Assembly (NCBI GenBank): GCA_039801085.1
Contig: JBDRTY010000001.1
Coordinates: 310,852-374,851, forward strand
DNA length: 64,000 nucleotides
Direction: 5' to 3'
Source: a candidate division WOR-3 bacterium
GTDB taxonomy: Bacteria > Hydrothermota > Tepidihabitantia > Tepidihabitantales > Tepidihabitantaceae
Part shown: positions 8,022 through 64,000 of the stretch, piece after piece
Layout of the letters: each line of letters starts with the position of its first letter
How positions within the stretch are numbered: the first letter of the stretch is position 1
The notes under the pieces: model-generated
Told to the model about the DNA's origin: nothing
Seen by the model: the letters and a program-made list of their open reading frames with translations, nothing else
The model's database searches: none
Made by a program: the position numbers and the translations under genes

Positions 8022-8170
8022 CAGCTGGCAAAATATCCCGATAATTAGCTATCGGCACCAGAGAGGACTTTTATCTTACCAAGCTGGAATGGCTCGGACC
8101 GCTGCTTGTCCGGGGGCTGAAGCTGCTGACCTCAGTTGAGGCACTGGGACAGGAGTTTTCCTTTTCCCAG

Positions 8171-40771: not shown

Positions 40772-41473
40772 GTGAGAATCAAGCATCGGGTCAGCAAGGA
40801 TGAGTTGAAAGAGGATAAATTCCAGGAGTTCGTCGAAAAGGCGGCGGAGTTTTATTATGAGAATCCGCGCCGGTTCTGGATCGGAGTTGCGGTCGGAATT
40901 CTGGTGATTGCTGGTGTCATTCTCCTGATTCAAAACCGGCCGAAACCGGTTCGGAGTGCCGAAGCAGAGCTGAGGCTGATGGATGCCCTTTCCAATCTCT
41001 ATCAGGGCAAGTATGATTACGCGGAGATGGCACTCAAGGAGCTGACAGCAAAATTTCCCCGTGATTATGCCGGCATCAAAGCCCATTTCTATCTGGGCAC
41101 ACTCTATTTCGGGTCTCAGGAGCCGCGACTGGCGGAGGCAAAGCGGGAGTTCGGAATTTTTTTGAAAAAGGCAAAAAATGATCTGCTGTTGACCCCGGCC
41201 GCCCAGTACGGAATTGCCGCCTGTGAGGAGCAGGCAGGAAATTATCTGCAGGCAGCCAGGCTTTATGAGTCAGTCTACCGTAAATATAAGGAGCTGCCGC
41301 TGGCACATGAGGCGGTGCTGGCAGCCGGGCGCTGTTTCCGGCTTGCTAATAAGCTTGATGAGGCGGAAAAGCTGTACAGTGACTATCTGGAAAAAGACAA
41401 GCCGGCAGCAATGAAGGCAGAGGATGTCAGGGTTCAGCTCGGTTACATCCGGGCACTCAAGAACCGGTTATAA
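40772..41473 (+). CDS. TPR-repeat membrane protein (YfgM-like ancillary translocon/chaperone family candidate). GTG start.
   Basis: One TM helix followed by TPR-like helical repeats. 233 aa. Confidence 0.45.
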   Translation: MRIKHRVSKDELKEDKFQEFVEKAAEFYYENPRRFWIGVAVGILVIAGVILLIQNRPKPVRSAEAELRLMDALSNLYQGKYDYAEMALKELTAKFPRDYAGIKAHFYLGTLYFGSQEPRLAEAKREFGIFLKKAKNDLLLTPAAQYGIAACEEQAGNYLQAARLYESVYRKYKELPLAHEAVLAAGRCFRLANKLDEAEKLYSDYLEKDKPAAMKAEDVRVQLGYIRALKNRL

Positions 41474-47540: not shown

Positions 47541-47611
47541 GTTGTTTCCTCCTTTTTATAAAATTGTCCGGAGTTTTCAGTATATTGGCAGCCGGATTGA
47601 TGTCAAGAATT

Positions 47612-48517
47612 TCAAAATTGAACTGTAACCGGTGCCCAGTTGTAGCCGGAGTCCCGGCTGAGCAGGAGAGTCAGTTCGTCGCCACCGATGATTCCAACCA
47701 GACCATCGGTAAAGAAGCGGATGGTAAACAGGTCCCTGGTGGTCCCGCTGTTAATCCTCTCCCAGGTTTCGCCACCATCAAGGGTATGAATTACTGTGCC
47801 CTGGGCACCGACACAGAAGCCCGCCATGGTGTCATGACGCATGTCCAGCGAATAAAGTGGTGGTAGCACGAAATCAATTGGCAGTGGACGCCAGATTTCA
47901 CCACCGTTAGGGGTGAAAAACACTCTGCCGGAATTGGTAGTGGCAAATCCGACTACATCGTCTGCCGGAAAGTGAACTGCGGTAAAGTGCGTATTGGTAA
48001 CCAGTCCATTTACATTGCCGGTCTGGGAAAACCAGACTGAACCGCCGGTGGTGGTTTTCAGGATTGTGCCGTTAAGCCCCACCGCATAGCCGGTCAGCTC
48101 GTCTGCCGGAAAGTGGATGTCCATGATTTTTTCCTCAGTGGCAGTCGGCAGTTTTTCCCAGGTTCTCCCATAATCTGCGGTTCGAAGCACAGTCCCGCGG
48201 TCGCCGGCTACGAATCCGACTTCCGGCGAGACGGGAAATTTGATGGAACGCAGGTCAACCGTTACAGGGGCAGGAAGCTGTTTCCAGTTTCTACCTTCAT
48301 CTTCGGTTTTCAGGAGCGTTCCTCTATCACCACAGGCATAGCCAATCATCGCCTGCCCCGGGAAGCAGACACTGTAGAGATTGACCGTAGTCGGGACAGT
48401 GAGCCGGACCCAGGTGGCGCCACCGTCAACCGTTTTCAGCAGCAGACCGTTATCGCCGGCGGCAAAGGCAATCATCGTATCCTCCAGCGTAAAGACCGAA
48501 TTAATCCGGTTCGGCAT
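47612..48517 (-). CDS. BNR/Ycf48-like beta-propeller protein
   Basis: Repeated T.DGG.TW / T.D.G.TW and GT.L.T motifs across ~300 aa. Confidence 0.5.
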   Translation of the reverse strand: MPNRINSVFTLEDTMIAFAAGDNGLLLKTVDGGATWVRLTVPTTVNLYSVCFPGQAMIGYACGDRGTLLKTEDEGRNWKQLPAPVTVDLRSIKFPVSPEVGFVAGDRGTVLRTADYGRTWEKLPTATEEKIMDIHFPADELTGYAVGLNGTILKTTTGGSVWFSQTGNVNGLVTNTHFTAVHFPADDVVGFATTNSGRVFFTPNGGEIWRPLPIDFVLPPLYSLDMRHDTMAGFCVGAQGTVIHTLDGGETWERINSGTTRDLFTIRFFTDGLVGIIGGDELTLLLSRDSGYNWAPVTVQF

Positions 48518-48704
48518 GGATATACAATATAAAAACCTGATTTTTTGTCAATAACTTGTAATTGGCATGCTGAAGATATAACTTGACTTTGGGCAGGGCA
48601 GGGTTAAGTTTTAACTGCGACAGCATAAGGACCGTCCCGCAATGCGGTCGGCGGGAAAGTCCCAAGTAGTTAGGAAAGAGCTAATAAAGACCGAGGAGGA
48701 GTTA

Positions 48705-51323
48705 ATGAAACACAAGGTCGCGATACTGGCTCTGGTCAGCGTGCTGGCACTGGCACTGGCTGCCGGTCCGGAGGTGACCACGAGCGATGTGAGTCAAGGT
48801 GAACCGCAGAAGGTAAAACTGTATTACGGCACTTATGGGTCAAATGATTATGTCTGGGGAACGGTGAAGACCCAGCTTCCAACCGATGCCTGGCTTTACC
48901 ACAGCGAGATGCCGGGCAGAATGATGGACAATACCTGTGCAACTGACGGCAACTATGTGTATGTGCTTGCTGGATACGGCACAAGCAACGCACTCTACCG
49001 CCATCAGGTCGGGTCAACCACCTGGCAGACGCTGGCACCCTGTCCAATGGATATCTGTAATGGTGGGGCTGCCATCATCGGTGATACACTTTATTACTGC
49101 AGCGGGTATTCTTACACTGTTGGTGCTACCGTTGATACGATGTTCAAATACTGCATCAGCACCAATACCTGGACGAGCGGACCCGGACCATTTACAGGCA
49201 CAACCTATAACTGGCAGCCGCTGGTGCTTGCCTGTGGGGGCAAGCTGTATTACATCAGCGGTTGCAATCAGCCCGGAGCTACCAGTCCGACCCGTGAGGT
49301 CTACTGTTATACACCGGGCAGTGGCTGGTCCCGGGTTGCGGATATGAATCAGGGACGGGTGTTTGCCATGGGCTGTGTCTATCATGATACCATCTGGGTT
49401 ACCGGCGGAAACGTTGACAATGTGGCAATTACCCATTCTGAATTTTATGACCCGGTTTCCAATACTTGGACAGTAAACAATTCCATATTCCCGCAACTCC
49501 CGATTGCCACCTGGGCAGCCGCAAGCGGTGTCGTTGGGCAGACGATGTTTGTCGCCTCAGGTGTGCGGGAGATGGTTGCGCTGATGGACACCTGCCAGTA
49601 TTTTGATTTCGGAACCCGGACTTGGACGGTCACACCTGATGTCCTCCTGCCGGTTTACCGCGGCACGGGTGTTGGCAATGCTGACGGCAAGGCGGTGGTT
49701 TATGGCGGTTCGATCGGCGGGTTTACACCGACGGATACCTGTCAGTATGAGGTGCTGGCAACCGGTAATGCAAATGATGTGGGTGTGATTCAGATTGTGG
49801 CGCCCGGGAGTGTGATTGTGCCGGGTAATGTGACACCGAGAGCGAAAATCAAGAACTTCGGCACCAATGCCCAGTCCAACATTCCAGTTTACTGCTGGAT
49901 TGATTCGGCCGGAACAAGAGTCTACGAGCAGAGTGCTACCTATGCCGGACCGCTGGCACCTGGTGCGACCGCGGATGTGGACTTTTCACCTCAGTGGCGG
50001 GCGGTAGGTGGAACCTACAATGTTACCATGTTTACCGACCTCCCCGGCGATGAATCGCGGGCTAACGATACCCTGCGCGGGACAACTCAGGTGATGCAGT
50101 ATTCAATCGACTGGTATCAGAGCGATACCATCCAGCCTGACCGGGTAAGCCGGACCGCCTGTGTTAATGATGCTCAGGGCAGGCTGCATGTCATCTGCGG
50201 TAACTGCTTTGTTCATACATCACATCCTTCGGATATGATTTATGATACCGTAACTCATACCTGGTCAACCGGACTGACTCATCCCGCTGGCGGTGGTGTG
50301 GGTGTTCACAATCACGATGCAGTGCGGATCAATGATGTAATCTGGGTTGGTGGCGGCAGTTCCGGCTCGGGTTTCTACAACAACCTTACGAAACTGGATC
50401 TTGGTGCCAATACCTGGACTTCTGCAACCGCGATGCCGCAGTCCAATCTGCTTTACTACGCGTTTGGCGAGTATGCGGACTCCGGCTGGGTTTACTGCTT
50501 CGGCGGTTCACCGGATGGTACCGGCGGACCGATCAACAACTGTTACCGGTATGACCCGAACACTAATGCCTGGACCGCAATGGCGAATATGCCTGAAGCG
50601 CGGCGCAATCCCATGGTTGCCCGGGTTGGTGATACCATCTATGTGATTGGCGGTATGTCAACCAATGATTACACATCAACCCGCGGGACGGTGTGGAAGT
50701 ACTCGGTACTCGGCAATACCTGGACCGTGGCAACTGATTCCATGCCGGACCGGCTGGGCTGGGGCAGGGCGGTTACCTACTCCTATTCTGGCGGAACCTT
50801 TATCTATGTGTTCGGCGGCTATCGGGCGGGCACGATTGTTAATACCTGCTGGCGGTATGATGTCAACAGCCACACCTGGACTCAGGACCGGGCGCTGTTG
50901 ACCGCAACCCGTTCGCACGGCGGTTCAATCTCAGGTAACTTCATCTGGGTGGCAGGCGGTTATAACACATCTCCTGGAATTCTGCCCAATGTCCAGAAGG
51001 GTGTTATTGCCCTGACCGGCGTTGAGGAAGGCAAGCCGACTGTCAACTGGGAAGGGATTGAGAGCGTCAGGCCGACGCTGGTCCGTGATTTCTGCCGGAT
51101 CAGTTACAGCTTGCCGGCGCGCAGCAATGTCAATCTGAGTGTATATGATGCGACCGGCTCACTGGTGCGCACGCTGGTTGACGGCACGGTAGCTGCAGGA
51201 AATCAGACGGTGACCTGGGACCGCCGGGATGCGGCGGGCAGGCGGGTTGCTGCCGGGACCTACTTCTACCGGCTGACCATCAACGGCAACTCGGTTTCCG
51301 CCAAGGCGTTGCTTCTGCAGTAA
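48705..51323 (+). CDS. Kelch-repeat protein with a CARDB-like domain and a T9SS C-terminal domain
   Basis: GAGGAGG RBS. Signal peptide. Kelch-like units (GGKLYYISG, DTIYVIGG, WVGGG). CARDB-like VGVIQIVAPGSVIVPGNVTPRAKIKNFG. CTD ...GTYFYRLTINGNSVSAKALLLQ. Confidence 0.6.
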   Translation: MKHKVAILALVSVLALALAAGPEVTTSDVSQGEPQKVKLYYGTYGSNDYVWGTVKTQLPTDAWLYHSEMPGRMMDNTCATDGNYVYVLAGYGTSNALYRHQVGSTTWQTLAPCPMDICNGGAAIIGDTLYYCSGYSYTVGATVDTMFKYCISTNTWTSGPGPFTGTTYNWQPLVLACGGKLYYISGCNQPGATSPTREVYCYTPGSGWSRVADMNQGRVFAMGCVYHDTIWVTGGNVDNVAITHSEFYDPVSNTWTVNNSIFPQLPIATWAAASGVVGQTMFVASGVREMVALMDTCQYFDFGTRTWTVTPDVLLPVYRGTGVGNADGKAVVYGGSIGGFTPTDTCQYEVLATGNANDVGVIQIVAPGSVIVPGNVTPRAKIKNFGTNAQSNIPVYCWIDSAGTRVYEQSATYAGPLAPGATADVDFSPQWRAVGGTYNVTMFTDLPGDESRANDTLRGTTQVMQYSIDWYQSDTIQPDRVSRTACVNDAQGRLHVICGNCFVHTSHPSDMIYDTVTHTWSTGLTHPAGGGVGVHNHDAVRINDVIWVGGGSSGSGFYNNLTKLDLGANTWTSATAMPQSNLLYYAFGEYADSGWVYCFGGSPDGTGGPINNCYRYDPNTNAWTAMANMPEARRNPMVARVGDTIYVIGGMSTNDYTSTRGTVWKYSVLGNTWTVATDSMPDRLGWGRAVTYSYSGGTFIYVFGGYRAGTIVNTCWRYDVNSHTWTQDRALLTATRSHGGSISGNFIWVAGGYNTSPGILPNVQKGVIALTGVEEGKPTVNWEGIESVRPTLVRDFCRISYSLPARSNVNLSVYDATGSLVRTLVDGTVAAGNQTVTWDRRDAAGRRVAAGTYFYRLTINGNSVSAKALLLQ

Positions 51324-51342
51324 CCGCTTCCCCGGATAAGAG

Positions 51343-51378
51343 CGAAGGGGCTGCCTTTCGGCAGCCCCTTCTGTTTTT
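51343..51378 (+). terminator. Rho-independent terminator
   Basis: aaggggctgcc-tttc-ggcagcccctt followed by ctgttttt. Abuts tRNA-Asn on the opposite strand. Confidence 0.6.
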
Positions 51379-51379
51379 A

Positions 51380-51452
51380 CTCCAGCGGCAGGGCTCGAAC
51401 CTGCGACCCTCCGGTTAACAGCCGGATGCTCTACCCATTGAGCTACGCTGGA
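51380..51452 (-). tRNA. tRNA-Asn (anticodon GTT)
   Basis: Reverse complement gives acceptor TCCAGCG/CGCTGGA, anticodon loop CTGTTAA, T-loop TTCGAGC. Confidence 0.75.
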
Positions 51453-51492
51453 ATCTGATAAAATATATCAAAGAGAAAAATACAAATCAAGT

Positions 51493-54333
51493 TCAGCGCA
51501 CAAGAGCAAATCTGGCGATTGACCGTCCAAATGTGGTTTCCAGCACCGCCAGATAGATTCCGGAGCCGGCAGGTTTCCCGGACTCATTCAACCCGTCCCA
51601 GCAGGCATTAATTCCTTCCAGTTCTTCAGAAGCAAAGTATCGTCCCGGAGTCGGCATTCTGGCGGTGTTGAGCTGAACCGTTTTTACCCTGACACCGCTG
51701 GTAGTGTAGATGGTGATCCGGGCGTCCGGAGTGACCCGGCTGAGATTAAGGGCAAAGTAAACCTTCAGGTTTTCCCCGGTAACAAACGGGTTGGGGTAAA
51801 TGAGTGCGATCCGGTCCTGCGGGCTGGGCTGTGTCCTGGGTGATGGCGGGAATCTGCTGAACGCGGAGTCAACACGGGGCACCCCATAACCGAAGGTGCA
51901 GCTTTTCACTGCCCGGCTGGCGGTTGTGTAAAGCGCCACCCGGATTGATTCCGCATTCCATTCGGGGTGTGCCTCCTTGAGCAGGGCACAGCAGCCGGCG
52001 ATCAGGGCGGTGGCACAGGAGGTACCGACGCTGCCTTCAAGGAAGTTTTCCGAATCCGGTGCCGCAACCGCAACGGTATCTGCCAGCGCTACCAGATCGG
52101 GTTTGATTCTGCCGTCAGCGGTCGGTCCGGTACCGGTTCCGCGCCAGGGGGTAAGGTTCTTCTCAACCCCACCGCAGGTGATGACGCCTTCGGCATCGCC
52201 AGGTGCGGTGATATACGGCCGGGGCCAGGGATATTCGGTTGTGTCACGGTTGCCCATCGCGGTGACGATTACCAGCCCGCGGCGTGCTGCCAGCTCGCAG
52301 GCAATTGAGATCGGTGCGGTTCTGCCGTCAAAATGCTCGTCCCGGTACCAGCCCCGATAGCCGAGCGATGTGGAAACAATATCCGCACCGCACTTTTCCG
52401 CCCACTCCAGCGCCTGAATATAGGTATCCTCCTCCATGTTATATTCATATCCCCGGTTGCCGGAAGTCTTGTAATATTCGGTTTTGGCGACAATCAGGTC
52501 GACTCCGGGTGCGATGCCCATCATGGAATAGGGCTGATAACCGGCGATCAGTGAAGCCATTCTGGTGCCGTGATTGGGCTGGTCATAGGAGAACTTCAGT
52601 GTGTCCGAATCTTCCCAGACCGCGATTTCATCACCCCGGCGGAACCAGAGGATGGAACTGTTGTCCGGGGCAGCCACTGGGGAATAGCAGAAACCGAGCG
52701 TATCAACCGGTTCTGTATCACGCCAGCTCATTCCCAAGTCCGGAGTTGTCCGCTGATAGAGCATACCGCCGGATTCGTAAACAAGGGTCAGACCATTGCT
52801 GGTGTGGCTCAGGGTATAATCCCCGAAGGAGCTGGCGGAGTCAATGGTCAGCGGAGAGGACCAGGTGGCGCCGAAGTCCGTTGAGCGGAGCAGATTCAAT
52901 TTTGTCCGGACCGGGTTGCTTTGATCCTGATAAACAAGGAGGCGCAGAGAATCGTGATTTTTTATGGTAAACAGTCTGATGTGTCCGGCACTGCCGGCAA
53001 TCAGTTCTCCATCGGGATTGAAGCTGACACCGCCATCAGTGGAATAAAACTGCCGGACCCGGCCGGTATTTTTCTCCCGGACAAGGAGGTTGATTCTGCC
53101 CTCAGGTCCGGCGCTGAGCTGGGGCTCGGTGAGCGGCTGGTCATGGGTGATTTCGGTATAGAGCAGCCAGTTTGGGGCAGGAGTGGTAATGAGCGCCTTG
53201 CGAAGGGAGATTACGGAATCGCTTTTCAGCCAGGCGGCATAAAGGGTGTCGGCGTAAATTGCCAAACTTGGATGCCTGCCTGTGCCGAGTGTCTGCCGGT
53301 TCTGCCAGCGGTCATTAATGAAATAACCGAGATAACAGGTGGGCGCAGCACCGGGATGCAGATCAACCTCATTAAACGCCAGATAAAATACCGAATCCCG
53401 GCAGTCCAGCTGCAGATTTTCATAAGTGTAGTAATAAGGCCGGGAAACTGCCACCGGCTGCGGCTGGCTCCAGTTTTCTCCCCGGTCAGCAGAAAATGTG
53501 AAGAAGACCGCCCGTGCGGGCAGACCGTAGGTGTAATTGAAACTGTCAGCAACAAAGGCAAGCAGGGTGAGACTGCCGTTGTCGCCCAGTGCCGGGTCCT
53601 TGACCAGACCAAGGTAGCGCAGTCGGGGTATAACTTCAGCTTCTGCTCCTGCATGCCGGATATAAAAATTGTCACCGGACAGAAAGTCATACTGCCGCCA
53701 GATCCGCAGCCGCCGGACCGCCTGGTTCTTGAGCTTCAGCCCGGTGTCAAAGAGCGCCAGTTTCACACCGGTGCCGAACCATCCCTGATAAAAAAGTTTC
53801 GGCACTCCCAGCATCTGCGCCTGATCCCAGGCAGCACCGTAGAACCGGTGGGCATCAGCGGTGTCAAGGGACCGGTAGTTGCGATGTGATTCCGGCTGGG
53901 TAAGCGGGACGGTCAGGTCAAAGGCGGTTTCAGTTTTCCGGGCAACAGGACGGATATCATAAACATAGGGAAGCTGGTAAATTCTCGATACCAGCTCCGG
54001 TGGCATTTCAAAGCTGGCAGCATTCAGCCAGCGGGACACGGTGCGCAGCCGGGCGCCCAGCGCCTCAATTTCCCGAATGTAATCCTGCCGGACCGGCAGG
54101 TCATCAAAGTCAAAGCCGGCAACCGGTTCCCGTGCCCGGCGCTGGAGCTGGGACAGGGATGCGGTCCGGTAGAGGTCAGCAAGCGCCTGCTGATACTGGG
54201 ACTGATTGAATATTCCCTTGTCCGTGAAAAAAACCCAGACCCGGCTGGGGGAGATTTCCGGCGGTGCGGATTTCACCGGAATGCGCACCAGTTCAACTGT
54301 CGCCGGAAGGAAAAGCAGCAGGAAAAGATGCAT
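51493..54333 (-). CDS. S8 subtilisin-family peptidase with a ~400-aa BNR/sialidase-like beta-propeller insertion inside the catalytic domain, and a T9SS C-terminal domain
   Basis: Asp context GVKLALFDTG near residue 190. His (HGTRMASLIAG) and Ser (GTSCATALIAG) only after residue ~600. BNR motifs STDGGVSF and STDFGATWS lie in between. CTD ...GIYLAVLETTFGRSIARFALVR. Confidence 0.6.
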   Translation of the reverse strand: MHLFLLLFLPATVELVRIPVKSAPPEISPSRVWVFFTDKGIFNQSQYQQALADLYRTASLSQLQRRAREPVAGFDFDDLPVRQDYIREIEALGARLRTVSRWLNAASFEMPPELVSRIYQLPYVYDIRPVARKTETAFDLTVPLTQPESHRNYRSLDTADAHRFYGAAWDQAQMLGVPKLFYQGWFGTGVKLALFDTGLKLKNQAVRRLRIWRQYDFLSGDNFYIRHAGAEAEVIPRLRYLGLVKDPALGDNGSLTLLAFVADSFNYTYGLPARAVFFTFSADRGENWSQPQPVAVSRPYYYTYENLQLDCRDSVFYLAFNEVDLHPGAAPTCYLGYFINDRWQNRQTLGTGRHPSLAIYADTLYAAWLKSDSVISLRKALITTPAPNWLLYTEITHDQPLTEPQLSAGPEGRINLLVREKNTGRVRQFYSTDGGVSFNPDGELIAGSAGHIRLFTIKNHDSLRLLVYQDQSNPVRTKLNLLRSTDFGATWSSPLTIDSASSFGDYTLSHTSNGLTLVYESGGMLYQRTTPDLGMSWRDTEPVDTLGFCYSPVAAPDNSSILWFRRGDEIAVWEDSDTLKFSYDQPNHGTRMASLIAGYQPYSMMGIAPGVDLIVAKTEYYKTSGNRGYEYNMEEDTYIQALEWAEKCGADIVSTSLGYRGWYRDEHFDGRTAPISIACELAARRGLVIVTAMGNRDTTEYPWPRPYITAPGDAEGVITCGGVEKNLTPWRGTGTGPTADGRIKPDLVALADTVAVAAPDSENFLEGSVGTSCATALIAGCCALLKEAHPEWNAESIRVALYTTASRAVKSCTFGYGVPRVDSAFSRFPPSPRTQPSPQDRIALIYPNPFVTGENLKVYFALNLSRVTPDARITIYTTSGVRVKTVQLNTARMPTPGRYFASEELEGINACWDGLNESGKPAGSGIYLAVLETTFGRSIARFALVR

Positions 54334-54341
54334 TAATTATA

Positions 54342-54415
54342 TACCCCGCGCAGGAATTGAACCTGCAACCCACGGATTAAGAATCCGTTGCTCTGCCAGG
54401 TTGAGCTAGCGGGGC
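54342..54415 (-). tRNA. tRNA-Lys (anticodon CTT)
   Basis: Acceptor GCCCCGC/GCGGGGT, anticodon loop TTCTTAA, T-loop TTCAATT. Confidence 0.75.
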
Positions 54416-54435
54416 ACAAATTACCATTTTTCATC

Positions 54436-54509
54436 TGCGCCCGGCGCGACTCGAACGCGCAGCCTACGGGTTCGAAGCCCGGCGCTCTATCCAGTTGAGC
54501 TACGGACGC
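54436..54509 (-). tRNA. tRNA-Arg (anticodon TCG). Identity is less certain because of one anticodon-stem mismatch.
   Basis: Acceptor GCGTCCG/CGGGCGC (one G-U pair), anticodon loop CTTCGAA, T-loop TTCGAGT. Confidence 0.6.
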
Positions 54510-54519
54510 ATGCATTCAG

Positions 54520-54595
54520 GGTGAGTGAGGGGACTCGAACCCCCAACATCCTGAGCCACAGTCAGGTGCTCTAACCGAATTGAGCTACACTCACC
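54520..54595 (-). tRNA. tRNA-His (anticodon GTG) with a genomically encoded G-1
   Basis: Extra 5' G paired to C73. Acceptor GTGAGTG/CACTCAC, anticodon loop CTGTGGC. Confidence 0.75.
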
Positions 54596-54709
54596 GTGCG
54601 ACTCAATTTTTCTTCAGTATAGCAATTTCCCGACCGTTTGTCCACTCTTGCATTGCGGGAATTCGATGGTAATATCTTCGGCGGGAAAATCAAAGAAAGG
54701 AGTAAGTTG

Positions 54710-55711
54710 ATGAGTCAGACCAGGCCAATGAGGAAGATACTGGTGACCGGCGCAGTCGGTCAGATCGGCTCCGAGCTGACGCTGGCGCTCCGTCAGCGCT
54801 ACGGAGCGGAGAATGTGATCGCCACCGGCAGAAAGACCCAGCCGAGCAGGGAGCTCCTGGAGTCCGGGCCATTCTACTTTATCGATGTAGCAAAGCGGGA
54901 GACGATTGAGGAGGTGGTGAGAAAGCACAACATTGACACCATCTTTCACCTGGCGGCGATTCTGTCCGCTGCCGGCGAAAAGAACCCCCAGCTCGCCTGG
55001 GATGTGAATATCAACGGGCTCTACAATGTGCTCGAGGTGGCACGCGAACACAATATGGCGCGGGTGATTGTGCCCAGCTCAATTGCGGTCTTCGGACCTG
55101 AGACCCCGCGCCAGAATACCCCGAACGAGACGATTCTCAAGCCGAGAACAATGTATGGAATCACCAAGGTAGCGGGTGAACTGCTGGGTGATTACTACTT
55201 CCGGCGTTTCGGTCTGGATGTGCGCGGACTGCGCTATCCGGGCATCATCTCCAATGTCACCCTGCCGGGTGGCGGTACCACCGATTATGCAGTTGAGATC
55301 TTCTACGCCGCAATCAAATTCCGGCGCTACAAGTGTTTCCTCCGGGAAGATACCCGGTTGCCGATGATGTACATGCCTGACTGCATCAAGTCAACAATCA
55401 TGCTTGCTGAGGCACCGCTGGAAAAGCTCAAGCACCACTGCGACTTCAATGTCACCGCCATGAGCTTCTCGGCGGGTGAGCTTGCTGCCGAGATCAGAAA
55501 GCACATCCCGGATTTTGAAGTCACCTACGAACCCGATTTCCGTCAGCAGATCGCCGACTCCTGGCCCGAGTCGATTGACGATTCGGCTGCCCGGGAGGAG
55601 TGGGGCTGGAAACCGGATTATGACCTGCCGGCAATGGTTAAGGACATGCTTGAGGTGCTGGGCAGAAGGCATAAGGAGGGGAAACTGGGCTGGCCCCCGG
55701 AAGGGGCATAG
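54710..55711 (+). CDS. NAD-dependent epimerase/dehydratase-family protein, L-threonine 3-dehydrogenase-like (extended SDR)
   Basis: AAGGAG RBS. GAVGQIGSEL Rossmann motif and YGITK catalytic motif. Confidence 0.55.
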   Translation: MSQTRPMRKILVTGAVGQIGSELTLALRQRYGAENVIATGRKTQPSRELLESGPFYFIDVAKRETIEEVVRKHNIDTIFHLAAILSAAGEKNPQLAWDVNINGLYNVLEVAREHNMARVIVPSSIAVFGPETPRQNTPNETILKPRTMYGITKVAGELLGDYYFRRFGLDVRGLRYPGIISNVTLPGGGTTDYAVEIFYAAIKFRRYKCFLREDTRLPMMYMPDCIKSTIMLAEAPLEKLKHHCDFNVTAMSFSAGELAAEIRKHIPDFEVTYEPDFRQQIADSWPESIDDSAAREEWGWKPDYDLPAMVKDMLEVLGRRHKEGKLGWPPEGA

Positions 55712-55720
55712 CTCTGACTG

Positions 55721-56494
55721 ATGGAGGACATCCGCAAACAGCGGCCTGAGGGTTCGATTCCGATTGACAAGGTCGGGGTCAAGAACCTGCGCTATCCGAT
55801 CGTCCTTCTGGACAGGGCGCACAAGCGTCAGCACACGATCGCCACGATCAGCATGTTTGTTGACCTGCCCAAGGAGCAGCGCGGTACCTTCATGGGCAGG
55901 TTTGTTGAGATCCTCAACCGCTATCACCGGGAGATTGATGTCCACAGGCTGGGCACAATTCTCAGGGAGATGCGGGAACGGCTCGGCGCCAACTCCGCCC
56001 ATCTGGAGATGGAGTTTCCCTACTTTGTGGAGAAGTGTGCACCGGTATCCGGGGTCCGTTCCCAGATGGACTACCGGTGCTGGATCAGCGCCAGCCTGAG
56101 CGACCGGTTTATGCTCCGGCTCGGGGTGGCGGTGCCGGTAACGACCCTGTGTCCCTGTTCAAGGGAGATGTCCGGCAGAGGCGGGCACAACCAGCGGGCA
56201 GAGATCCGGGCGGTCGTGGAGTTCAAGGGGTTTGTCTGGATTGAGGACCTGATTGATCTTCTCGAGGAGTGCGGCTCAAGCGAGGTGTATTCACTGCTGG
56301 AGCGGGAGGATGAGAAGCACCTCACCGCTCAGGCGCTGGACAACCCGGCGTTTGTTGAGGATGTGGTGCGCAAGGTGGCACAGCGGCTTGATGCCCATCC
56401 CCAGATCACCGGTTATGAGGTGGAGGTGGAGAGTTTTGAATCCATCCACCACCACGAAGCCTATGCCTATATCAACCGCTTCCGCTCGGGATGA
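55721..56494 (+). CDS. folE2: GTP cyclohydrolase FolE2/MptA (type IB)
   Basis: IPIDKVGVKNLRYPI...TIATISMFVDLP...CPCS motifs characteristic of FolE2 (DUF198). Confidence 0.7.
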   Translation: MEDIRKQRPEGSIPIDKVGVKNLRYPIVLLDRAHKRQHTIATISMFVDLPKEQRGTFMGRFVEILNRYHREIDVHRLGTILREMRERLGANSAHLEMEFPYFVEKCAPVSGVRSQMDYRCWISASLSDRFMLRLGVAVPVTTLCPCSREMSGRGGHNQRAEIRAVVEFKGFVWIEDLIDLLEECGSSEVYSLLEREDEKHLTAQALDNPAFVEDVVRKVAQRLDAHPQITGYEVEVESFESIHHHEAYAYINRFRSG

Positions 56495-57090
56495 AGACCC
56501 TGCTCGTTGACTGCTACCTCAAGGATGCCGAGTCCCGGCTCGTTTATTACCGGCAGATGATTCAGCCCTGGTCCGAGATTTCTGAGATAAAGCTCGCGGA
56601 GCTGAAACCGGGGCTTGACTTTACTCAATACGATGCGGTGGTGCTCACCGGTTCCCAGTGGATGCTTTCGGAAAGGGATGTGCCCGAACCGGTTAAGGCG
56701 GTGCTCCGCCAGCTGCTCCTGCCGGTGCTCGGCATCTGCTTCGGTCACCAGCTCCTTGCCCGCTCCTTCGGTGCGGAGGTCAAAAGCGGGCCGGAATTCA
56801 TCGACCGGATGGAGCGGATCCGGTTTCAGCCCTGGCGCCTGTTTGCCGGGCTGGCGCCGGAGGCGGAGATGCGGGAGAGCCACCGGGAATATGTCACCCC
56901 GGAATCGCTCGAACGGATGGGCTGGGAGATCGGTGCGGTTTCTTCTTCCTGTCCGGTTGAGGCGATAAGGCATCCCCGGCTCCCGCTCTACGGTGTTCAG
57001 TTCCATCCGGAGCGGTCAGAAATAAATGGCGAAATACTGTTCCGCAACTTCTACGAGATCGTCAAATCAGTCCGCACCGGCCAGGGCTGA
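56491..57090 (+). CDS. Class I glutamine amidotransferase-like protein
   Basis: GICFGHQLL (catalytic Cys) and VQFHPE (His/Glu). Start overlaps the folE2 stop. Confidence 0.6.
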   Translation: MKTLLVDCYLKDAESRLVYYRQMIQPWSEISEIKLAELKPGLDFTQYDAVVLTGSQWMLSERDVPEPVKAVLRQLLLPVLGICFGHQLLARSFGAEVKSGPEFIDRMERIRFQPWRLFAGLAPEAEMRESHREYVTPESLERMGWEIGAVSSSCPVEAIRHPRLPLYGVQFHPERSEINGEILFRNFYEIVKSVRTGQG

Positions 57091-57094
57091 CGCA

Positions 57095-57803
57095 GACACA
57101 GCAAAGAGATTTCTCCGCTCCGGTTGAGATGATCCTTTCTGTCATTCCGAGTGGAGCGAAGCGGAATCGAGGAATCCCTTTTTTCTTCTTCCGTCATTCC
57201 GAGCCTGTTGAGGAATCTCCTTCAAGAGATTTCTCGACTCCGCCCTTCGGGCTCCGCTCGAAATGACCGAAAGGGAAGTCATTCCGCGCCTGTCGAGGAA
57301 TCGCTTTTAAGGGATTTCTCCACTGCGGTCGAAATGACGAAAAGGGAAGTCATTCCGGGCTTGTCGAGGAATCTCTTTTAAGCGATTTCTCCACTCCGCC
57401 TCGCTCTGCTCGGCTCCGGTCGAAATGACCGAAAAAAAATGTGCCTGCGGCTTCGCTCCGGTCGAAATGACCCTTACTTGTCATTCCGGGTGGAGCGAAG
57501 TGGAAGCGGTGAATCTCCTTTTTCTCAGACTGAGAGGGATTTCTCGACTGCGCTCGAAATGACCCAAACAGGTTACTGCGGTCGGATAGACCTCTGCGGG
57601 TCGTTCCATGCCTTTCTTTTATTGTCATTCCGAGTGAAGCGAAGCGGAATCGAGGAATCTCTCTTTTCTTCTTCCGTCATTCCGCGCCTGTCGAGGAATC
57701 TTCTTCAAGAGATTTCTCGACTCCGCCCTTCGGGCTCCGCTCGAAATGACCGTTTTATTATTGTGTCATTCCGGGCGAGGCGTCAGCCGAGTCGAGGAAT
57801 CGG
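57095..57803. repeat. Tandem array (about 9 units) of degenerate imperfect-palindromic repeats (gtcattccg...cgaggaatc...gatttctc...cgaaatgac), 40-80 nt each, separated by ~10-nt a/g-rich linkers
   Basis: Unit starts at 57141, 57193, 57278, 57349, 57480, 57624, 57676, 57765. Each unit's two arms are near-reverse-complements (gtcattYcg / cgRaatgac, cgaggaatc / gatttctcg). Confidence 0.7.
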
Positions 57804-57823
57804 TAAATCAGTGCAAAATGCAA

Positions 57824-57864
57824 AATCTGTCAAGCTGTTGACAGATTCAAATGCTGCTTATAAT
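57824..57864 (+). promoter_or_regulatory. Sigma70-like promoter (TTGACA-N15-TATAAT), with a perfect 10-bp inverted repeat AATCTGTCAA-gctg-TTGACAGATT over the -35. Candidate operator.
   Basis: IR arms at 57824..57833 and 57838..57847. -35 at 57838..57843, -10 at 57859..57864. Confidence 0.5.
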
Positions 57865-57884
57865 TACTGTGAGCCGATGAGTTT

Positions 57885-57909
57885 CTACTCTACTCTACTC
57901 TACTCTACT
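57885..57909 (+). repeat. (CTACT)5 pentanucleotide microsatellite in the 5' leader
   Basis: ctactctactctactctactctact lies ~20 nt downstream of the -10. The paralogous locus has 10 copies. Confidence 0.8.
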
Positions 57910-58056
57910 CTACTCCTTATTACTCCAATATCTTAACCCCTCGGGTGAGGTGCGGGCAGGCAGGCGGTGCTGCTGGCGGCAGTCTGCTGCCAGCGGTTGG
58001 AAGTCAGCAGGCAACCTGATAGATTTAAATCATTAAAAGCGGAAAGGAGGTTGAGG

Positions 58057-59658
58057 ATGAAAAAGGCAAGTTTGTTCAGGTTGCTGATTTTAAGCACCGC
58101 AGTGCTCGCGGGGGCGATGTTAGCACAGGAGTGGGAAAGGCTGGAAGATGTGCCGGTTCCGGTTCAGCGCTGGGCATGTCTGACATATTCCTACAGCGAG
58201 TATGGTTCAAGGTCCTATGACACGGTCTGGGGTGTCTTTCCGGCACCTGCCTACGGCAAAACCTGGTTCCTTTATTACGACTGTGTTGACGGCCACTGGC
58301 ATTATCCCGCTGATTCGGTGATCAACCGGGATATGAAACAGACCGCTTTGACCTTTCAATGGCTGGAAGAGGGAGTTGTTTATCTTGTGGGGCAGACATT
58401 GGACGGAGACAACCTCTTCTGGTATCCGTTGAATGAAGGGCGCTGGCATTCAGAGCCGATAACTGCCTTTGCTCTTGGTCCCCGTCCCGGGCTGGCATAT
58501 AAAGCAAATCCCGGCTACAACCAGCAGCTTGAGCCGATACCGGGCTGGCTTTACTGTCTTGCCGGTGGTGGTCAGCAGTTCTGGCGCTACTGGCTGCCGA
58601 GCAGTTATCCGCCGGTGACGGTGGATGGCATCTACCCGGCTCAGGGTGCCCTGATTGCAGATCAGACACCGGTGTTCATCTGGCAGGAGGAAGGGGCAGC
58701 GATTGAATACCGGCTGGTGGTGGCGACCGATCCACAGTTTAGTAACACGGTGATCAATGTCATCACCACGGTGCCGCAGTATTAGGTGGAGACCAGACTG
58801 GCAAATGGCGACTATTACTGGCAGACCGCATCCCGGAGTGCAGGCAGTGGCTGGAAGACCGGACCGGTGCACAGCTTCCGGCTTCAGGGTGGCTGGGAGC
58901 GGCTGGCAGATATCCCGACGCGGGTTGGTGATGGCGGGGCGCTTGCCTACTGCGGGAAGTTCTTCGGCACATCTTCAGACATCTTCATTGCCTTTGTCGG
59001 GGGCGGCGACACCGTCTGCTACGCCTATGTGGACGAGTATAATCGCTGGGTGCGGCTGTATAGTGAAGAGTATGTGCCTCCGCAGAACATCGGCGCAGCT
59101 CTGAGTGCGCATCGGGGGCTTTATATGGACCGAGGGACTCCTTATGCTATTTGGGGGATTGGTGATAACTATTTTCGATTTTATGAGTGGGGGAGATGGA
59201 CTCAAGGAGCTCCAGCGCTCCCAGAAGATATCGGGCCGGGTGCATCTTTAGCTGTGGGGCGGTACCATTTACAACCTTATGGCGCTTATCTTTACTTCAT
59301 TCCCGGGTCCGATCCAAGAAATGGAACACCAAGAGTCTCCTTCTGGCGAAAGCTGGTCTTTGCTTATGACGGGCAGACAAAGGTACAGAAGTCGGGTGGA
59401 ATGGGTGATGAGGGGTTGTATAGCAATCAGATGATTCTGGCTGGTGGTAAAGGGGTGATAGCTTATGTGCTGGACCGACCGGCGAATGTGCGGATAGCGG
59501 TTTTTGATGCTGCGGGCAGAAGGGTTGCTCTGCCATATGCTGGCAGGCAGGATGGAGGTCACCATCTGGTCCGCTGGCATTTCAAGGGTGCCGGAGCGTA
59601 TTTTGTCCTTGTTGACATTGACGATGAAAGGCATAAATTCAAGGTGGTTGTGCGGTAG
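58057..59658 (+). pseudogene. T9SS-secreted surface protein (paralog of 61698..63545) with an in-frame TAG at 58783..58785 inside a conserved Fn3-like segment
   Basis: GAAAGGAGG RBS. Signal peptide MKKASLFRLLILSTAVLAG is identical to the paralog. ORFs 57967..58785 and 58786..59658 share frame 1. CTD ...GAYFVLVDIDDERHKFKVVVR. Confidence 0.55.
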
Positions 59659-59716
59659 AACAAAGGTAAAGGCGGCGGGGCGGAATTGCCCCGCCGCACA
59701 AAGGGGCAGAGGGTTG

Positions 59717-61060
59717 ATGGCTTATTTCCTTTTAATTTTCCTTTGTCCTGCGACTGTCTTCGGACAGGTGGTGGAGCTGGACACAGTATTGACTTTCCCT
59801 CAGCGGATTCTGAATGGTTTTTATGTCTCCGAGTTGAATAAATTATACATTTCCAGCCGTAACAAGATTTATGTGGTTGACTGTTCAACCTGTCAGATGG
59901 GTGAGATTCCGATCAGCTGGGGAGGTGATAATCATTTTGCTTATAATCAGCAGGGCAGGAAATTGTATGTGAAGGACCAGGGATACAGTGACAGTGTGGC
60001 GGTGATTGATGTGCTGGGCGATACGGTTATTAAATGGATTTCAATCAGCGGTATTCAGGCAAGGAACTTGGCTTATGCCAGGAATACTAACCGGCTGTAT
60101 TTCGGTGGTGTGCGGCTTTGTGTAGTGAACTGTGATAATGACAGCATTATCAGGGAGATTGCTCCTCCTCTTTCCGGTTACTATTTCGCGGCGGCGGACT
60201 GGGATGCTGAGCAAATGAAGCTTTATGTGTCATTAGCGAGATGGGGGTATCCGCCGATGATGGCGGTCTATGATACGAGTGAGTCGCTGGTGGCGCTGTT
60301 GCGGGTTCCGATTGTTGAGCCGTTTGCCCTGCAGTTTCATCATCAGCTGGGCAAGGCATATTTTGCCGGCTATGCCATGGATTGTGCGGGTGTGATTGAC
60401 ACGAAAAACGACACCTTTGTTCGCTGGTTTCCGATTCTGGTTGTGTATTCCGGCCTGGTTCCCTATGCGCTGGATACGATTGACGACAAGTTCTACTGTG
60501 CAGCTGCGCGTCAGCATTGGCCCGACACGCTGTATGTGATTGACTGTGTGACCGACTCCATCGTCAAAAAGCTCCTGGAGGCGGGCTGGGGACCTTTGTC
60601 GGTGCGCTGGGCGGCCTGGAGCAACCGGCTGTATTTCACCGGTGGTCCGCGTGGTGAGACGCTGAAGGTCCTGGACTGCCGGACCGATTCGGTGATTGAC
60701 CGGGTGTATCTGGAGGAGTATAGCCTCTTCGGGCCGCCGGACATTGAGCTGGACCCGGTCCGGCACCGCATCTTTGCGATTGGCTGTGACAGCGCGCTGT
60801 ATGTTCTGCGCGAGCTGGAGCAGGGGGTTGAGGAGGAGCGGAGCAACAATCCGGGGCGGTCAGCGCCCACAGTGGTGCGGGGTGTGCTGTATCTGCCGGA
60901 GCGGGCAGGAGCGGCAGGTAAGCCGGTGCTGGTGGACATCACCGGCAGGCGGGTGCGGGAGCTTGTGCCCGGTGCCAATGATGTGCGGGGTCTGGTACCA
61001 GGGGTGTATTTTGTCCGCAGCAATGCCGGCGTGGAACGCAAAGTAGTGATTGCACGGTAG
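59717..61060 (+). CDS. YVTN-family beta-propeller repeat protein with a T9SS C-terminal domain
   Basis: Signal peptide MAYFLLIFLCPATVFGQ. Repeated KLYVS/NRLYF(T)G units. CTD ...GVYFVRSNAGVERKVVIAR. Confidence 0.55.
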   Translation: MAYFLLIFLCPATVFGQVVELDTVLTFPQRILNGFYVSELNKLYISSRNKIYVVDCSTCQMGEIPISWGGDNHFAYNQQGRKLYVKDQGYSDSVAVIDVLGDTVIKWISISGIQARNLAYARNTNRLYFGGVRLCVVNCDNDSIIREIAPPLSGYYFAAADWDAEQMKLYVSLARWGYPPMMAVYDTSESLVALLRVPIVEPFALQFHHQLGKAYFAGYAMDCAGVIDTKNDTFVRWFPILVVYSGLVPYALDTIDDKFYCAAARQHWPDTLYVIDCVTDSIVKKLLEAGWGPLSVRWAAWSNRLYFTGGPRGETLKVLDCRTDSVIDRVYLEEYSLFGPPDIELDPVRHRIFAIGCDSALYVLRELEQGVEEERSNNPGRSAPTVVRGVLYLPERAGAAGKPVLVDITGRRVRELVPGANDVRGLVPGVYFVRSNAGVERKVVIAR

Positions 61061-61423
61061 GAAAGGGATTTCTCCACTGCGCTCGAAATGACATAAACAG
61101 GTTACTGCGGTCGGATAGACCTCTGCGGGTCGTTCCATGGCTTTGCTTTCTTGTCATTCCGAGTGAAGCGAAGCGGAATTGAGGAATCCCTTTTTTCTTC
61201 TTCCGTCATTCCGCGCCTGTCGAGGAATCTCCTTCAAGAGATTTCTCGACTCCGCCCTTCGGGCTCTGCTCGAAATGACCGAAAGAGAAGTCATTCCGCG
61301 CCTGTCGAGGAATCTCTTTTAAGCGATTTCTCCACTCCGCCTCGCTCTGCTCGGCTCCGGTCGAAATGACCGTTTTATTATTGTGTCATTCCGCGCGAGG
61401 CGTCAGCCGAGTCGAGGAATCGG
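61061..61423. repeat. Second, shorter copy of the tandem palindromic-repeat array (4-5 units), homologous to 57525..57803
   Basis: Unit starts at 61153, 61205, 61290, 61385. Also shares the unique ~60-nt segment caaacaggttactgcggtcggatagacctctgcgggtcgttccatg. Confidence 0.7.
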
Positions 61424-61443
61424 TAAATCAGTGCAAATTGCAA

Positions 61444-61485
61444 AATCTGTCAAGCTGTTGACAGAATTCAAATTCTGCTTATAAT
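61444..61485 (+). promoter_or_regulatory. Paralogous promoter/operator: AATCTGTCAA-gctg-TTGACAGAAT, then TTGACA-N16-TATAAT
   Basis: -35 at 61458..61463, -10 at 61480..61485. One-base insertion in the right IR arm and spacer relative to copy 1. Confidence 0.5.
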
Positions 61486-61505
61486 TACTGTGAGCCGATG
61501 AGTTT

Positions 61506-61555
61506 CTACTCTACTCTACTCTACTCTACTCTACTCTACTCTACTCTACTCTACT
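61506..61555 (+). repeat. (CTACT)10 pentanucleotide microsatellite in the 5' leader
   Basis: Ten perfect tandem CTACT copies. The flanks are identical to the (CTACT)5 locus. Confidence 0.8.
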
Positions 61556-61697
61556 CCTTATTACTCCAATATCTTAACCCCTCGGGTGAGGTGCGGGCAG
61601 GCAGGCGGTGCTGCTGGTGGCAATCTGCTGCCAGTGGTTGGAAGTCAGCAGGCAACCTGATAGATTTAAATCATTAAAAGCGGAAAGGAGGTTGAGG

Positions 61698-63545
61698 ATG
61701 AAAAAGGCAAGTTTGTTCAGGTTGCTGATTTTAAGCACCGCAGTGCTCGCGGGTATTGCGTTTGGAAGATGGGAGCCGCTTGATCCGGTTGGCGATGGTG
61801 AAGTGGTTGGTCCTGGCGGCTGTGCGGCACGGGGTAGGGGCTACACCTTCGTTGCAATAGGGGATGGGAGGAGGAAGGTATATGCATTTGATCATGAGGG
61901 TGAAATGTGGGATGAAATAGAAGTACCGATGCCCGAGGCAATTGATTATGCCGGCGCGATGGCATATGAACTTGGATATGGACGTCATTTGTATGTTGTG
62001 ACTGATGAAAGCGGAGGAAAACTTCAGGTGTATCGTTTTTATGAAAATGAAGACTTGGAAGGCGAGTGGTTGCCACCGATTCCATTACCGGAATCAATCG
62101 GTCCTGGTGTGGCACTGGCCTTTGTTCCCTGTGTGAGGGCAGACACAACCCATATTGGTGACCTTTACCTTCTGGTGGGAAAATGCACCCGACATTTTTA
62201 CCGGCGTTCATTTGACTGGATCGCCGAGCTTGATGCCCTCGGTCCGGGCAATGATGCGGAAATAACGGTGCAGGATATCTGTCTTGACTGGCTCCCTGAT
62301 CCCTGGTGGGATTCATACCGGTTACAGGTGTCATCCAATGCAGATTTTACCAGCCTGGTGCTGGATACGGTGATATCGGTTGGTGAATTCAAACCAGCAG
62401 GTGCGGTATTCCCCTCTGCAACCGGCACTTATTACTGGCGGGTCCGGGGTATTAAAGACGGGCATCACTCGGACTGGTCCGAAGCTCAAAGTTTCACTTT
62501 AGCCCAGCAGAATACCTCTCTCAATTACGAGATTATTCCTGCCGATGGGTTGCTGATAAGCGGTGATGAGCTGGTATTTGACTGGCAGCCTCAGAGTGAT
62601 GCGGAATCCTACCGGCTGCAGGTGGCGCTATCCCCGGATTTTTCCGAGCCGGTGATTGATGTTATTACCGATGTGAGTGAATGGGTGGCAGAGCAACCGC
62701 TTGAGACTGGCACATACTACTGGCGGGTGTGCTGCCGGAGAGCAAATGGCTGGGACAGCTGGACTCAACCGATTGAGTTTCAGGTTGAATACGGCTGGCA
62801 GCGACTGCCGGACATTCCATCTGACACCCCGGTTGGAGCCGGTGGTGCGATGTGCTATGTTAAGGCCAGGGATGGTGATACTATGGCACTCTATGTGCTG
62901 GTGGGGAATGGCAGCAGTCAGTTCTGGCGGTTCAATCTCAGTGAGGGTGGAGTCTGGCAGGAGCGGGCTGAAACCCCTTATCCGCAGACCGGCGGCGCAG
63001 CAATTACATCATATCAGAGGTGGCAGCAATCAAGCGACCTGTGGGCGATTTTTGGCGATTTGGTGGAATTCAGGCGTACTTTCAAAATAAATCATAACGG
63101 TTGGGCGAGAATTGATCATCCTCTTCCCCGGGTTTGCGAATACGGTTCATCGATTGTTCGCAACGAGCCTGATTACCATCTTGTTTTAGTCGTTGCCGGT
63201 GAATATCCTGAGGACAGCACCAACTTTTATGCCTGGGTGCCGGATACGGCTAAGGACGGAGAGGAGGGTGCGCAGGCGCGGTCGGCGGGCTTTGGTCCAG
63301 CCGATGTCCGGTTTGGGCGCACCGGCTCTGATCTGTGGCTGAATTACACGCTCTCGGAGCCGGCAGCAGTGGATATCGGTCTGTTTAACCCTGCGGGTCA
63401 GAAGGTGGCAAGTTTATATTCAGGGTGGCAAAGCGCCGGTTGTCATCAGCACCGATACAGACCCGGTTCGCTGATAAAGGGGGTTTGCTTTATCAGGGTT
63501 GACATTGCGGGCAGAAGCACTACTATCAAGCTAACCGCATGGTAG
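61698..63545 (+). CDS. T9SS-secreted surface protein with two Fn3-like modules (intact paralog of 58057..59658)
   Basis: GAAAGGAGG RBS and the same signal peptide. Repeated YRLQVS..DF......TGTYYWRV modules. CTD ...GVCFIRVDIAGRSTTIKLTAW. A GC hairpin follows at 63560..63584. Confidence 0.6.
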   Translation: MKKASLFRLLILSTAVLAGIAFGRWEPLDPVGDGEVVGPGGCAARGRGYTFVAIGDGRRKVYAFDHEGEMWDEIEVPMPEAIDYAGAMAYELGYGRHLYVVTDESGGKLQVYRFYENEDLEGEWLPPIPLPESIGPGVALAFVPCVRADTTHIGDLYLLVGKCTRHFYRRSFDWIAELDALGPGNDAEITVQDICLDWLPDPWWDSYRLQVSSNADFTSLVLDTVISVGEFKPAGAVFPSATGTYYWRVRGIKDGHHSDWSEAQSFTLAQQNTSLNYEIIPADGLLISGDELVFDWQPQSDAESYRLQVALSPDFSEPVIDVITDVSEWVAEQPLETGTYYWRVCCRRANGWDSWTQPIEFQVEYGWQRLPDIPSDTPVGAGGAMCYVKARDGDTMALYVLVGNGSSQFWRFNLSEGGVWQERAETPYPQTGGAAITSYQRWQQSSDLWAIFGDLVEFRRTFKINHNGWARIDHPLPRVCEYGSSIVRNEPDYHLVLVVAGEYPEDSTNFYAWVPDTAKDGEEGAQARSAGFGPADVRFGRTGSDLWLNYTLSEPAAVDIGLFNPAGQKVASLYSGWQSAGCHQHRYRPGSLIKGVCFIRVDIAGRSTTIKLTAW

Positions 63546-63604
63546 CGGAGATAAAACCGGGAGGGGCGGATCCGTCCCCTCCCGACATTCAGGAAGACTG
63601 GGCA

Positions 63605-64000
63605 ATGAGGATTGTATTGTTGCTCTCTTTATTAACCGCTTCAGCAGATGCCGGTCTGGTGCTGGATACGATTCTGCCGGTTCCGGACCCGGTAGAATTT
63701 ATGTATCTGGTTCCGGCCTTCAACAAGCTGTATGCAGGTGGGCGGAGTGCCCGTATCTATGTGTTTAACTGTGAAGATGAGGAGCTTACTGGTATTATTT
63801 CGCCTTCGGGATTTGGCGAGGTTTATCCCTATCCGGCATGGGCAGCGCAACACAACAAGTTATACTTTCCAGTCTCTCACAACCCCATTTCTGATGAGAG
63901 CTGTGCCTTGGCCGTAGTGGATGTTACTACCGACTCCCTTCTAAAGGTGATTGAATTAAATACACGTTATTGGGGTAGCTCTTACTTTCCGATTGCCTGG
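63605..64000 (+). CDS. Secreted beta-propeller-like protein, YVTN-type (5' part; continues past the window end)
   Basis: AGGAAG RBS-like 8 nt upstream. Signal peptide MRIVLLLSLLTASADA. Open frame to the window end with KLYAGG / KLYFPV repeat signatures. No in-frame stop, so it is absent from the ORF track. Confidence 0.45.
   Translation, partial: MRIVLLLSLLTASADAGLVLDTILPVPDPVEFMYLVPAFNKLYAGGRSARIYVFNCEDEELTGIISPSGFGEVYPYPAWAAQHNKLYFPVSHNPISDESCALAVVDVTTDSLLKVIELNTRYWGSSYFPIAW

Follow-up and report, generated by a model that had tools for sequence, protein, structure and literature searches.

A probable recent nonsense mutation splits a surface-protein gene in a candidate division WOR-3 bacterium

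We find that a gene encoding one secreted surface protein of about 533 amino acids in candidate division WOR-3 is interrupted by an in-frame amber codon. The interruption is likely to be a plain, recent nonsense mutation, CAG to TAG at Gln243, which splits the gene into two fragments. The alternative to a very recent gene break is a consensus error at that base; programmed recoding is not supported. In itself the event is a textbook nonsense lesion, and what deserves to be pursued is only the pattern, seen across populations, of repeated inactivation and mosaicism at the locus. All positions refer to the 64,000-nucleotide stretch of DNA that was analyzed (the window), and the coordinates of the main features are collected in Table 1.

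The interrupted gene and its protein

The two halves of the gene fall in ORFs 57967..58785 and 58786..59658, which share a frame and are parted by a single TAG, in the context ...ACG GTG CCG CAG TAT TAG GTG GAG ACC AGA.... The original prediction started from exactly this arrangement, two ORFs of frame 1 separated by TAG alone, and both the sequence and an ORF scan confirm it. The likely true start within the upstream ORF is ATG 58057, which is preceded by a GGAGG box. The source metagenome-assembled genome (MAG) annotates the two fragments as separate "hypothetical proteins" on a 934,845-bp contig: ABIK48_01715 (MEO0020874.1) for the 5' fragment and ABIK48_01720 (MEO0020875.1), with GTG 58786 as its start, for the 3' fragment. 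The 3' fragment has no signal peptide of its own.

Table 1. Features of the interrupted gene, its leader, and its paralogue in the 64-kb window
Feature	Position	Strand	Remarks
(CTACT)6 pentanucleotide repeat	57885..57914	+	Within the upstream module shared with the paralogue; 143 nt upstream of the start codon
5' fragment of the broken gene	58057..58785	+	242 aa plus TAG; aligns with residues 1-242 of intact orthologues
Predicted signal peptide, MKKASLFRLLILSTAVLAGAMLA	58057..58125	+	KK n-region, hydrophobic core, A-x-A-like end
Ig/Fn3-like beta-sandwich cut by the stop	58624..58887	+	Residues about 190-277; AlphaFold2, Pfam, Foldseek
In-frame amber codon TAG	58783..58785	+	From CAG (Gln243) via a C-to-T transition at 58783
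3' fragment of the broken gene	58786..59658	+	290 codons plus TAG; aligns with residues 244-535 of intact orthologues
Hypervariable mosaic segment	59112..59338	+	Inside the 3' fragment, in the second propeller-like region; 227 nt swapped relative to L001
C-terminal sorting domain (T9SS type A / FlgD-Ig-like)	59446..59655	+	Borderline match; now severed from the signal peptide
Intact paralogue	61695..63545	+	616 aa; same upstream module and signal peptide, two Ig-like repeats

A comparison with the intact paralogue downstream indicates that the split is real. When the joined product was aligned to this paralogue by BLASTP, one high-scoring pair ran straight across the stop, from residues 192-533 of the joined product to residues 280-614 of the paralogue (31% identity, E = 2e-31). 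Since a single alignment passes through the stop, the two ORFs are not a chance juxtaposition. An alignment with the paralogue across the stop had been claimed in advance. That claim stands in so far as one continuous match exists, but the repeat quoted first aligns more weakly, and the best match of the joined product is to the second Ig-like repeat of the paralogue (YRLQVALSPDFSEPVIDVITDVSEW-VAEQPLETGTYYW).

We also scanned all six frames of the window for pairs of segments, each 100 codons or longer, with a single stop between them. The 58783 pair alone was judged to be one interrupted gene, a judgement made by inspecting coordinates against ORF lists and not by a formal test. The remaining pairs have the look of antisense shadows, except for the one at 40772/41480, which looks like two adjacent, separate genes.

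GTG 58786 was considered as a designed start for a second protein and rejected. It has no upstream Shine-Dalgarno sequence, the ORF that follows it lacks a signal peptide, and relatives carry identical bases at this position as an internal Val codon.

The protein encoded by the intact gene is laid out as a signal peptide, a propeller-like region, an Ig/Fn3-like domain, a second propeller-like region, and a C-terminal sorting domain of the type IX secretion system (T9SS) type. The signal peptide is predicted from a reading of the sequence, and the identical peptide opens the paralogue. An AlphaFold2 model of an orthologue with 92% identity (P0001; mean pLDDT 80, pTM 0.78) follows the same order. 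An N-terminal helix corresponding to the signal peptide leads into a beta-rich region and a beta-sandwich at about residues 190-277, followed by a second beta-rich region and then a C-terminal beta-sandwich. Foldseek matches to the model are proteins that combine beta-propellers with FnIII domains, and propeller lectins.

The stop falls inside the first of these sandwiches. In the model, residue 243 lies in strand E241-243, and the sandwich is predicted with a pLDDT of 92-97. On intact orthologues, Pfam places a DUF4962 match (PF16332) at residues 212-278, with 32.8 bits against a gathering threshold of 28.7, and a Pfam scan of the window's gene finds no DUF4962 match in either half. Thus, the loss of the Pfam match from both halves and the modeled strand bear out the earlier suggestion that the stop interrupts an Fn3-like module that is otherwise preserved. 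Several orthologues are named "DUF4962 domain-containing protein" by NCBI. Their match uses profile positions 50-116 of 476, which form the N-terminal Ig-like part, so that the family profile is not covered, and the rest of the protein is propeller-like.

The sorting domain is a borderline match over the last ~70 residues. TIGR04183 scores 22.9 bits on the 3' fragment, against a cut-off of 23, and 22.1 bits on P0001, and PF13860 matches the same domain with E = 0.013. PF18962 is on record for the orthologue P0009, where a fresh scan gives E = 4.7e-4 and a score of 20.8 bits (cut-off, 27). Among the more distant orthologues, PF18962 or PF13860 is present. The architecture resembles that of T9SS type A cargo in the FCB group: a sequence resembling a signal peptide at the N terminus, modules of the beta-propeller and Ig-like kinds, and, over the last 70 aa or so, a C-terminal domain with matches to TIGR04183, PF18962, and PF13860. 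It differs from typical cargo in two respects: the C-terminal domain here is just below the curated cut-off (22.9 versus 23 bits), and in the window copy the stop uncouples the two ends of the protein.

These features make the expected consequences of the lesion simple. A single recent C-to-T transition would have turned Gln243 (CAG) into amber (TAG) and split the gene, and ribosomes should then terminate at 58785. The resulting 242-aa product would be exported without the sorting domain and with only the first half of the Ig domain. Any protein made from the downstream ORF would lack a signal peptide. With the stop placed between signal peptide and sorting domain, both pieces should be non-functional; a truncated export product and a 3' ORF that cannot enter the export pathway by a signal peptide of its own would together leave this copy functionally off. 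We infer this loss of function from domain logic.

In most respects the locus looks like an ordinary nonsense-mutation pseudogene or allele. One transition converts a conserved sense codon into a stop, sister strains carry intact orthologues, two ORFs are annotated where relatives have one, and the stop stands between the signal peptide and the C-terminal sorting domain. Nothing essential sets it apart; the lesion is unusually young and is known from one MAG consensus. One practical outcome is a correction to the annotation: ABIK48_01715 and ABIK48_01720 belong together as the two parts of a single surface-protein gene of the DUF4962 type, which should carry a pseudogene or interrupted-gene label.

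Ancestral codon, age of the lesion, and consensus accuracy

A protein search with the joined sequence returned 14 homologues, all from candidate division WOR-3 or from unnamed metagenomes, one of them with 92% identity at 100% coverage. Thirteen of the 14 were aligned, and 12 cover the stop position. A single ORF of 506-536 aa runs across the site in 12 of the 13 aligned homologues. The residue at the position of the stop is Q in 11 of the 12 covering orthologues and E in the remaining one.

The DNA evidence agrees. All six related DNA loci have CAG at the position of the stop, one of the codons that the original prediction had named as possible at this site. These six loci, all from other assemblies, amount to four independent sequences with 92-99.7% identity: L001 (MAG GCA_039801105.1); L002 (Logan SRR27730018); L003 (MAG SKW181), which is identical to L004 (JGI Ga0209479); and L009 (GCA_965649005.1), which is identical to L010 (GCA_039801045.1). 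With CAG in all related DNA, the ancestral codon is CAG and the lesion is a C-to-T transition at 58783.

There is also an intact allele of 523 aa (P0018; MEO0021872.1). Its first 345 aa are identical to the window protein except for Q243, and this identical N-terminal half is joined to another class of C-terminal half. P0018 lies on a 549,547-bp contig, and its accession is just 998 above that of the window's protein. It may therefore come from a sister MAG, or else from the window's own MAG, either because the gene is present twice there or because strains are mixed.

The sequence downstream of the stop shows no sign of decay. Across codons 1-351, the nonsense change is the sole non-synonymous difference from the nearest intact alleles. 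Codons 244-351, all beyond the stop, show one to two differences from those alleles, every one of them synonymous. Farther downstream, in codons 428-533, the window and L001 are separated by one synonymous and one non-synonymous difference. Since all differences but one in the conserved downstream parts are synonymous, the lesion is either very recent or a consensus artefact. This agrees with the earlier argument that the lesion is young, in that a long-dead pseudogene would show more decay. With CAG in every related locus and so little change downstream, a recent nonsense mutation is the best supported of the options that the original prediction had listed.

The same data could arise if CAG is the organism's true codon and the T at 58783 was introduced during base calling, polishing, or consensus building; the T may also be a minority or majority variant within the population. 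Only one base is affected, by a transition common to no relative, it has left no evolutionary footprint downstream, and lesions do occur in MAGs, as in L001, where an epimerase gene is split by a 22-nt indel. The consensus around the gene nevertheless looks accurate when it is compared with other assemblies. A Logan contig from SRR30574052, an independent assembly, is 100% identical to the window over the 11.4 kb beside the gene (45721-57184; 11,464 bp); it ends at 57184 in a repeat region, 0.9 kb upstream and short of the gene. Over 6 kb shared with a contig of another MAG, there are 12 mismatches and not a single indel. In the rest of the 64 kb, no other gene split by a single in-frame stop was seen. 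Furthermore, different lesions in this same gene elsewhere show that real loss-of-function alleles circulate, and one such lesion is identical in two separately deposited assemblies. We thus consider an artefact quite unlikely, and a real nonsense allele, whether plain or positively selected, very likely. A search of the literature on the run and assembly accessions returned nothing relevant.

The split epimerase of L001 is an NAD-dependent epimerase gene at 7186-8147 (about 55144-55177 in the window), where an indel of ~22 nt leaves two pieces of 139 and 177 aa. The gene is intact in the window, as a 357-aa ORF, and in L006 and L007.

Recoding and readthrough

Programmed readthrough had been raised as a further option. 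In its strongest form, TAG would be decoded with high efficiency, either as pyrrolysine or as Gln (through a suppressor tRNA or an altered code), and the whole protein would be produced. The residue that orthologues predict at the stop is indeed Gln, and the reading frame past the stop is perfectly preserved. There are also precedents: supE-type amber suppressors insert Gln, and TAG-recoded phage genomes read TAG as Gln.

The rest of the evidence points the other way. The stop occurs in none of the 12 covering protein orthologues and none of the six DNA loci. TAG is an ordinary terminator for about 9 of the 51 predicted ORFs in the window, including the broken gene itself (59658) and the next two genes (61060 and 63545). 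A tRNA scan of the 64-kb window found seven tRNAs, among them tRNA-Gln(CTG), and none of the seven has a CUA anticodon. The 100 nt from the stop are not unusually structured (folding energy -34.3 kcal/mol, where shuffled sequences average -32.05; z = -0.59), and Rfam returned only two sub-threshold chance matches in 56900-64000, with no match near the stop. The protein is unrelated to the methyltransferases that contain pyrrolysine. Thus, ordinary use of TAG, a window free of suppressor tRNAs, the lack of downstream RNA structure, and a stop present in no relative leave recoding unsupported, and we regard it as extremely unlikely.

Reassignment or suppression of TAG throughout the genome was considered separately and rejected on the evidence of the 64 kb, in which TAG terminates many ORFs, no CUA tRNA is encoded, and the six-frame scan revealed no further single-stop-split gene judged real. 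The locus shares with amber suppression and TAG-to-Gln recoding (supE-type tRNA-Gln(CUA) and phages) only an ancestral Gln at the TAG. It differs from those systems in its normal use of TAG as a terminator, in having no suppressor tRNA in the window, and in a stop that is conserved in no relative. Unlike the TAG-recoded phage genomes, moreover, the window is a bacterial chromosomal region with housekeeping genes and tRNAs.

Under the preferred reading, a plain nonsense mutation, trace amounts of full-length protein could arise only through basal near-cognate misreading of UAG by tRNA-Gln(CUG). In Escherichia coli and yeast, such misreading is mostly by tRNA-Gln. Any trace readthrough product would thus be the wild-type protein.

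Allelic variation at the locus and its upstream module

The window's stop is one of several lesions in this gene. In the orthologous gene of L002 (68-1546), codon 26 has changed from TGG to TGA (W26*). L009 (57-1627) and L010 (249-1819) share a 1-bp deletion, CC to C, at codon 162, which is not in a long tract and splits the gene into 186 and 335-337 aa. L009 and L010 are 100% identical and were thus counted as one allele. Among five alleles with a near-identical N-terminal half (at least 99.5% DNA identity, or 100% protein identity for P0018), three are disrupted, namely those of the window, L002, and L009/L010, and two, L001 and P0018, are not. The more distant SKW181 allele is intact.

The C-terminal half of the gene is mosaic. 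Between the window and L001, near-identical flanks enclose more than 100 mismatches across 59112-59338. Similarity to the window breaks off at one left breakpoint, 59112, in all four independent relatives (L001, L002, L003/L004, and L009/L010), and a second allele class differs from 59112 to the end of the gene. This fixed breakpoint suggests recombinational swapping of C-terminal segments. We found no donor for the swapped segment within the window.

Further hypervariable patches lie at 59823-60422, 49347-49638, and 50539-50832, in strains that are otherwise about 99% identical. All of them are inside genes for secreted or propeller proteins.

The leader of the gene is also variable. An upstream module of about 600-700 nt, comprising repeat elements, a promoter-like box, a repeat tract, the ribosome-binding site, and the first ~19 codons with the signal peptide, occurs at 57532-58112. 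It is duplicated with 94-99% identity at 61061-61753, before the 616-aa paralogue. The repeat tract, (CTACT)n, has 6 units before the broken gene and 10 before the paralogue (61506-61555). Relatives have 5 units in L001 (9833-9857) and 3 in L003/L004 (SKW181; 845-859 in L004). The tract is a candidate contingency element.

Taken together, the other lesions, the repeat tract, and the mosaic segments weakly suggest a variable surface-protein locus. The original prediction had offered a phase-OFF variant as one of its options. At the stop itself this does not hold: the context CAGTAT[C/T]AGGTGG is not repetitive, the only repeat tract is the one upstream of the start codon, and no invertible element is present. 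With neither a repeat tract nor an invertible element at 58783, nothing makes the change reversible. Targeted mutagenesis of the DGR or deaminase type was considered as well, but one or a few transitions are much too small a number to bear on it. What might still apply is a population-level version, in which inactivation arose independently several times at a variable surface-protein locus of this uncultivated WOR-3 lineage and the TAG is among the resulting OFF alleles; we consider this unlikely.

A fuller form of the idea treats the gene as a contingency locus. Its family of surface proteins would be variable, with selection favoring loss-of-function alleles again and again, for instance because they allow escape from a phage or predator that uses the protein. 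The TAG would then be one of several population-level OFF alleles, with no reversible switch at the site. Several observations fit: three lesions (Q243*, W26*, and the 1-bp deletion at codon 162) among five near-identical alleles, hypervariable mosaic segments with a common breakpoint, a duplicated upstream module whose repeat tract has 3, 5, 6, or 10 units, and surrounding genes that also encode secreted or propeller proteins. Set against these are the small sample, in which L002 is a short Logan contig, and a point mutation without any means of reversal. The same pattern would be expected if selection on a redundant family of paralogues were relaxed, and there is no known phenotype or phage link. 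Both the repeated selection of such alleles and the place of the TAG among them are, in our judgement, very unlikely, and a plain recent nonsense mutation remains the preferred explanation of the stop.

The contingency loci of Neisseria, Haemophilus, and Campylobacter offer a useful comparison. They, too, involve a paralogous surface-protein family with a common 5' module, a short upstream tandem repeat of variable copy number, and several independent OFF alleles in closely related populations. Two differences stand out. The OFF lesion here is a point mutation and not a change in repeat length, so it is not readily reversible, and the repeat here is outside the coding sequence.

If the contingency reading were true, a cargo protein of the T9SS type would vary among populations both in ON/OFF state and in antigenic type, with phages or predators as a plausible driving force. 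To our knowledge, no such surface variation has been described so far in this phylum. If natural WOR-3 populations contain, side by side, different loss-of-function alleles, alleles with exchanged C-terminal segments, and variants in repeat length, the locus could be used as a marker of strain-level surface variation, and possibly also of phage pressure, in an uncultivated phylum.

Several smaller features of the region were recorded. A TTGACA-N15-TATAAT-like box (57832-57858) lies just ahead of the (CTACT)n tract, and the tract itself falls within a possible small upstream ORF (uORF) from ATG 57877. This uORF has 19 aa in the window and 45 aa as called in L001 and L010. From these lengths, the frame of the uORF appears to shift with the number of repeat units. 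The copy of the upstream module that belongs to the paralogue is absent from L001, where a 221-aa gene is found instead.

Four copies of a REP-like element of ~53 nt (TGTCATTCCGAGTGRAGCGAAGCGGAATCGAGGAATC...) occur at 57134-57186, 57473-57525, 57617-57669, and 61146-61198. They sit in the 1 kb of intergenic DNA that precedes the gene, where the L006, L007, and L008 contigs, those fetched that reach the REP-like region, all end. ORF 57439..57936, which spans this region, is probably no gene. Farther upstream, a cluster of three tRNAs (Lys-CTT, Arg-TCG, and His-GTG) occupies 54341-54594 on the minus strand, directly upstream of an S8 peptidase gene.
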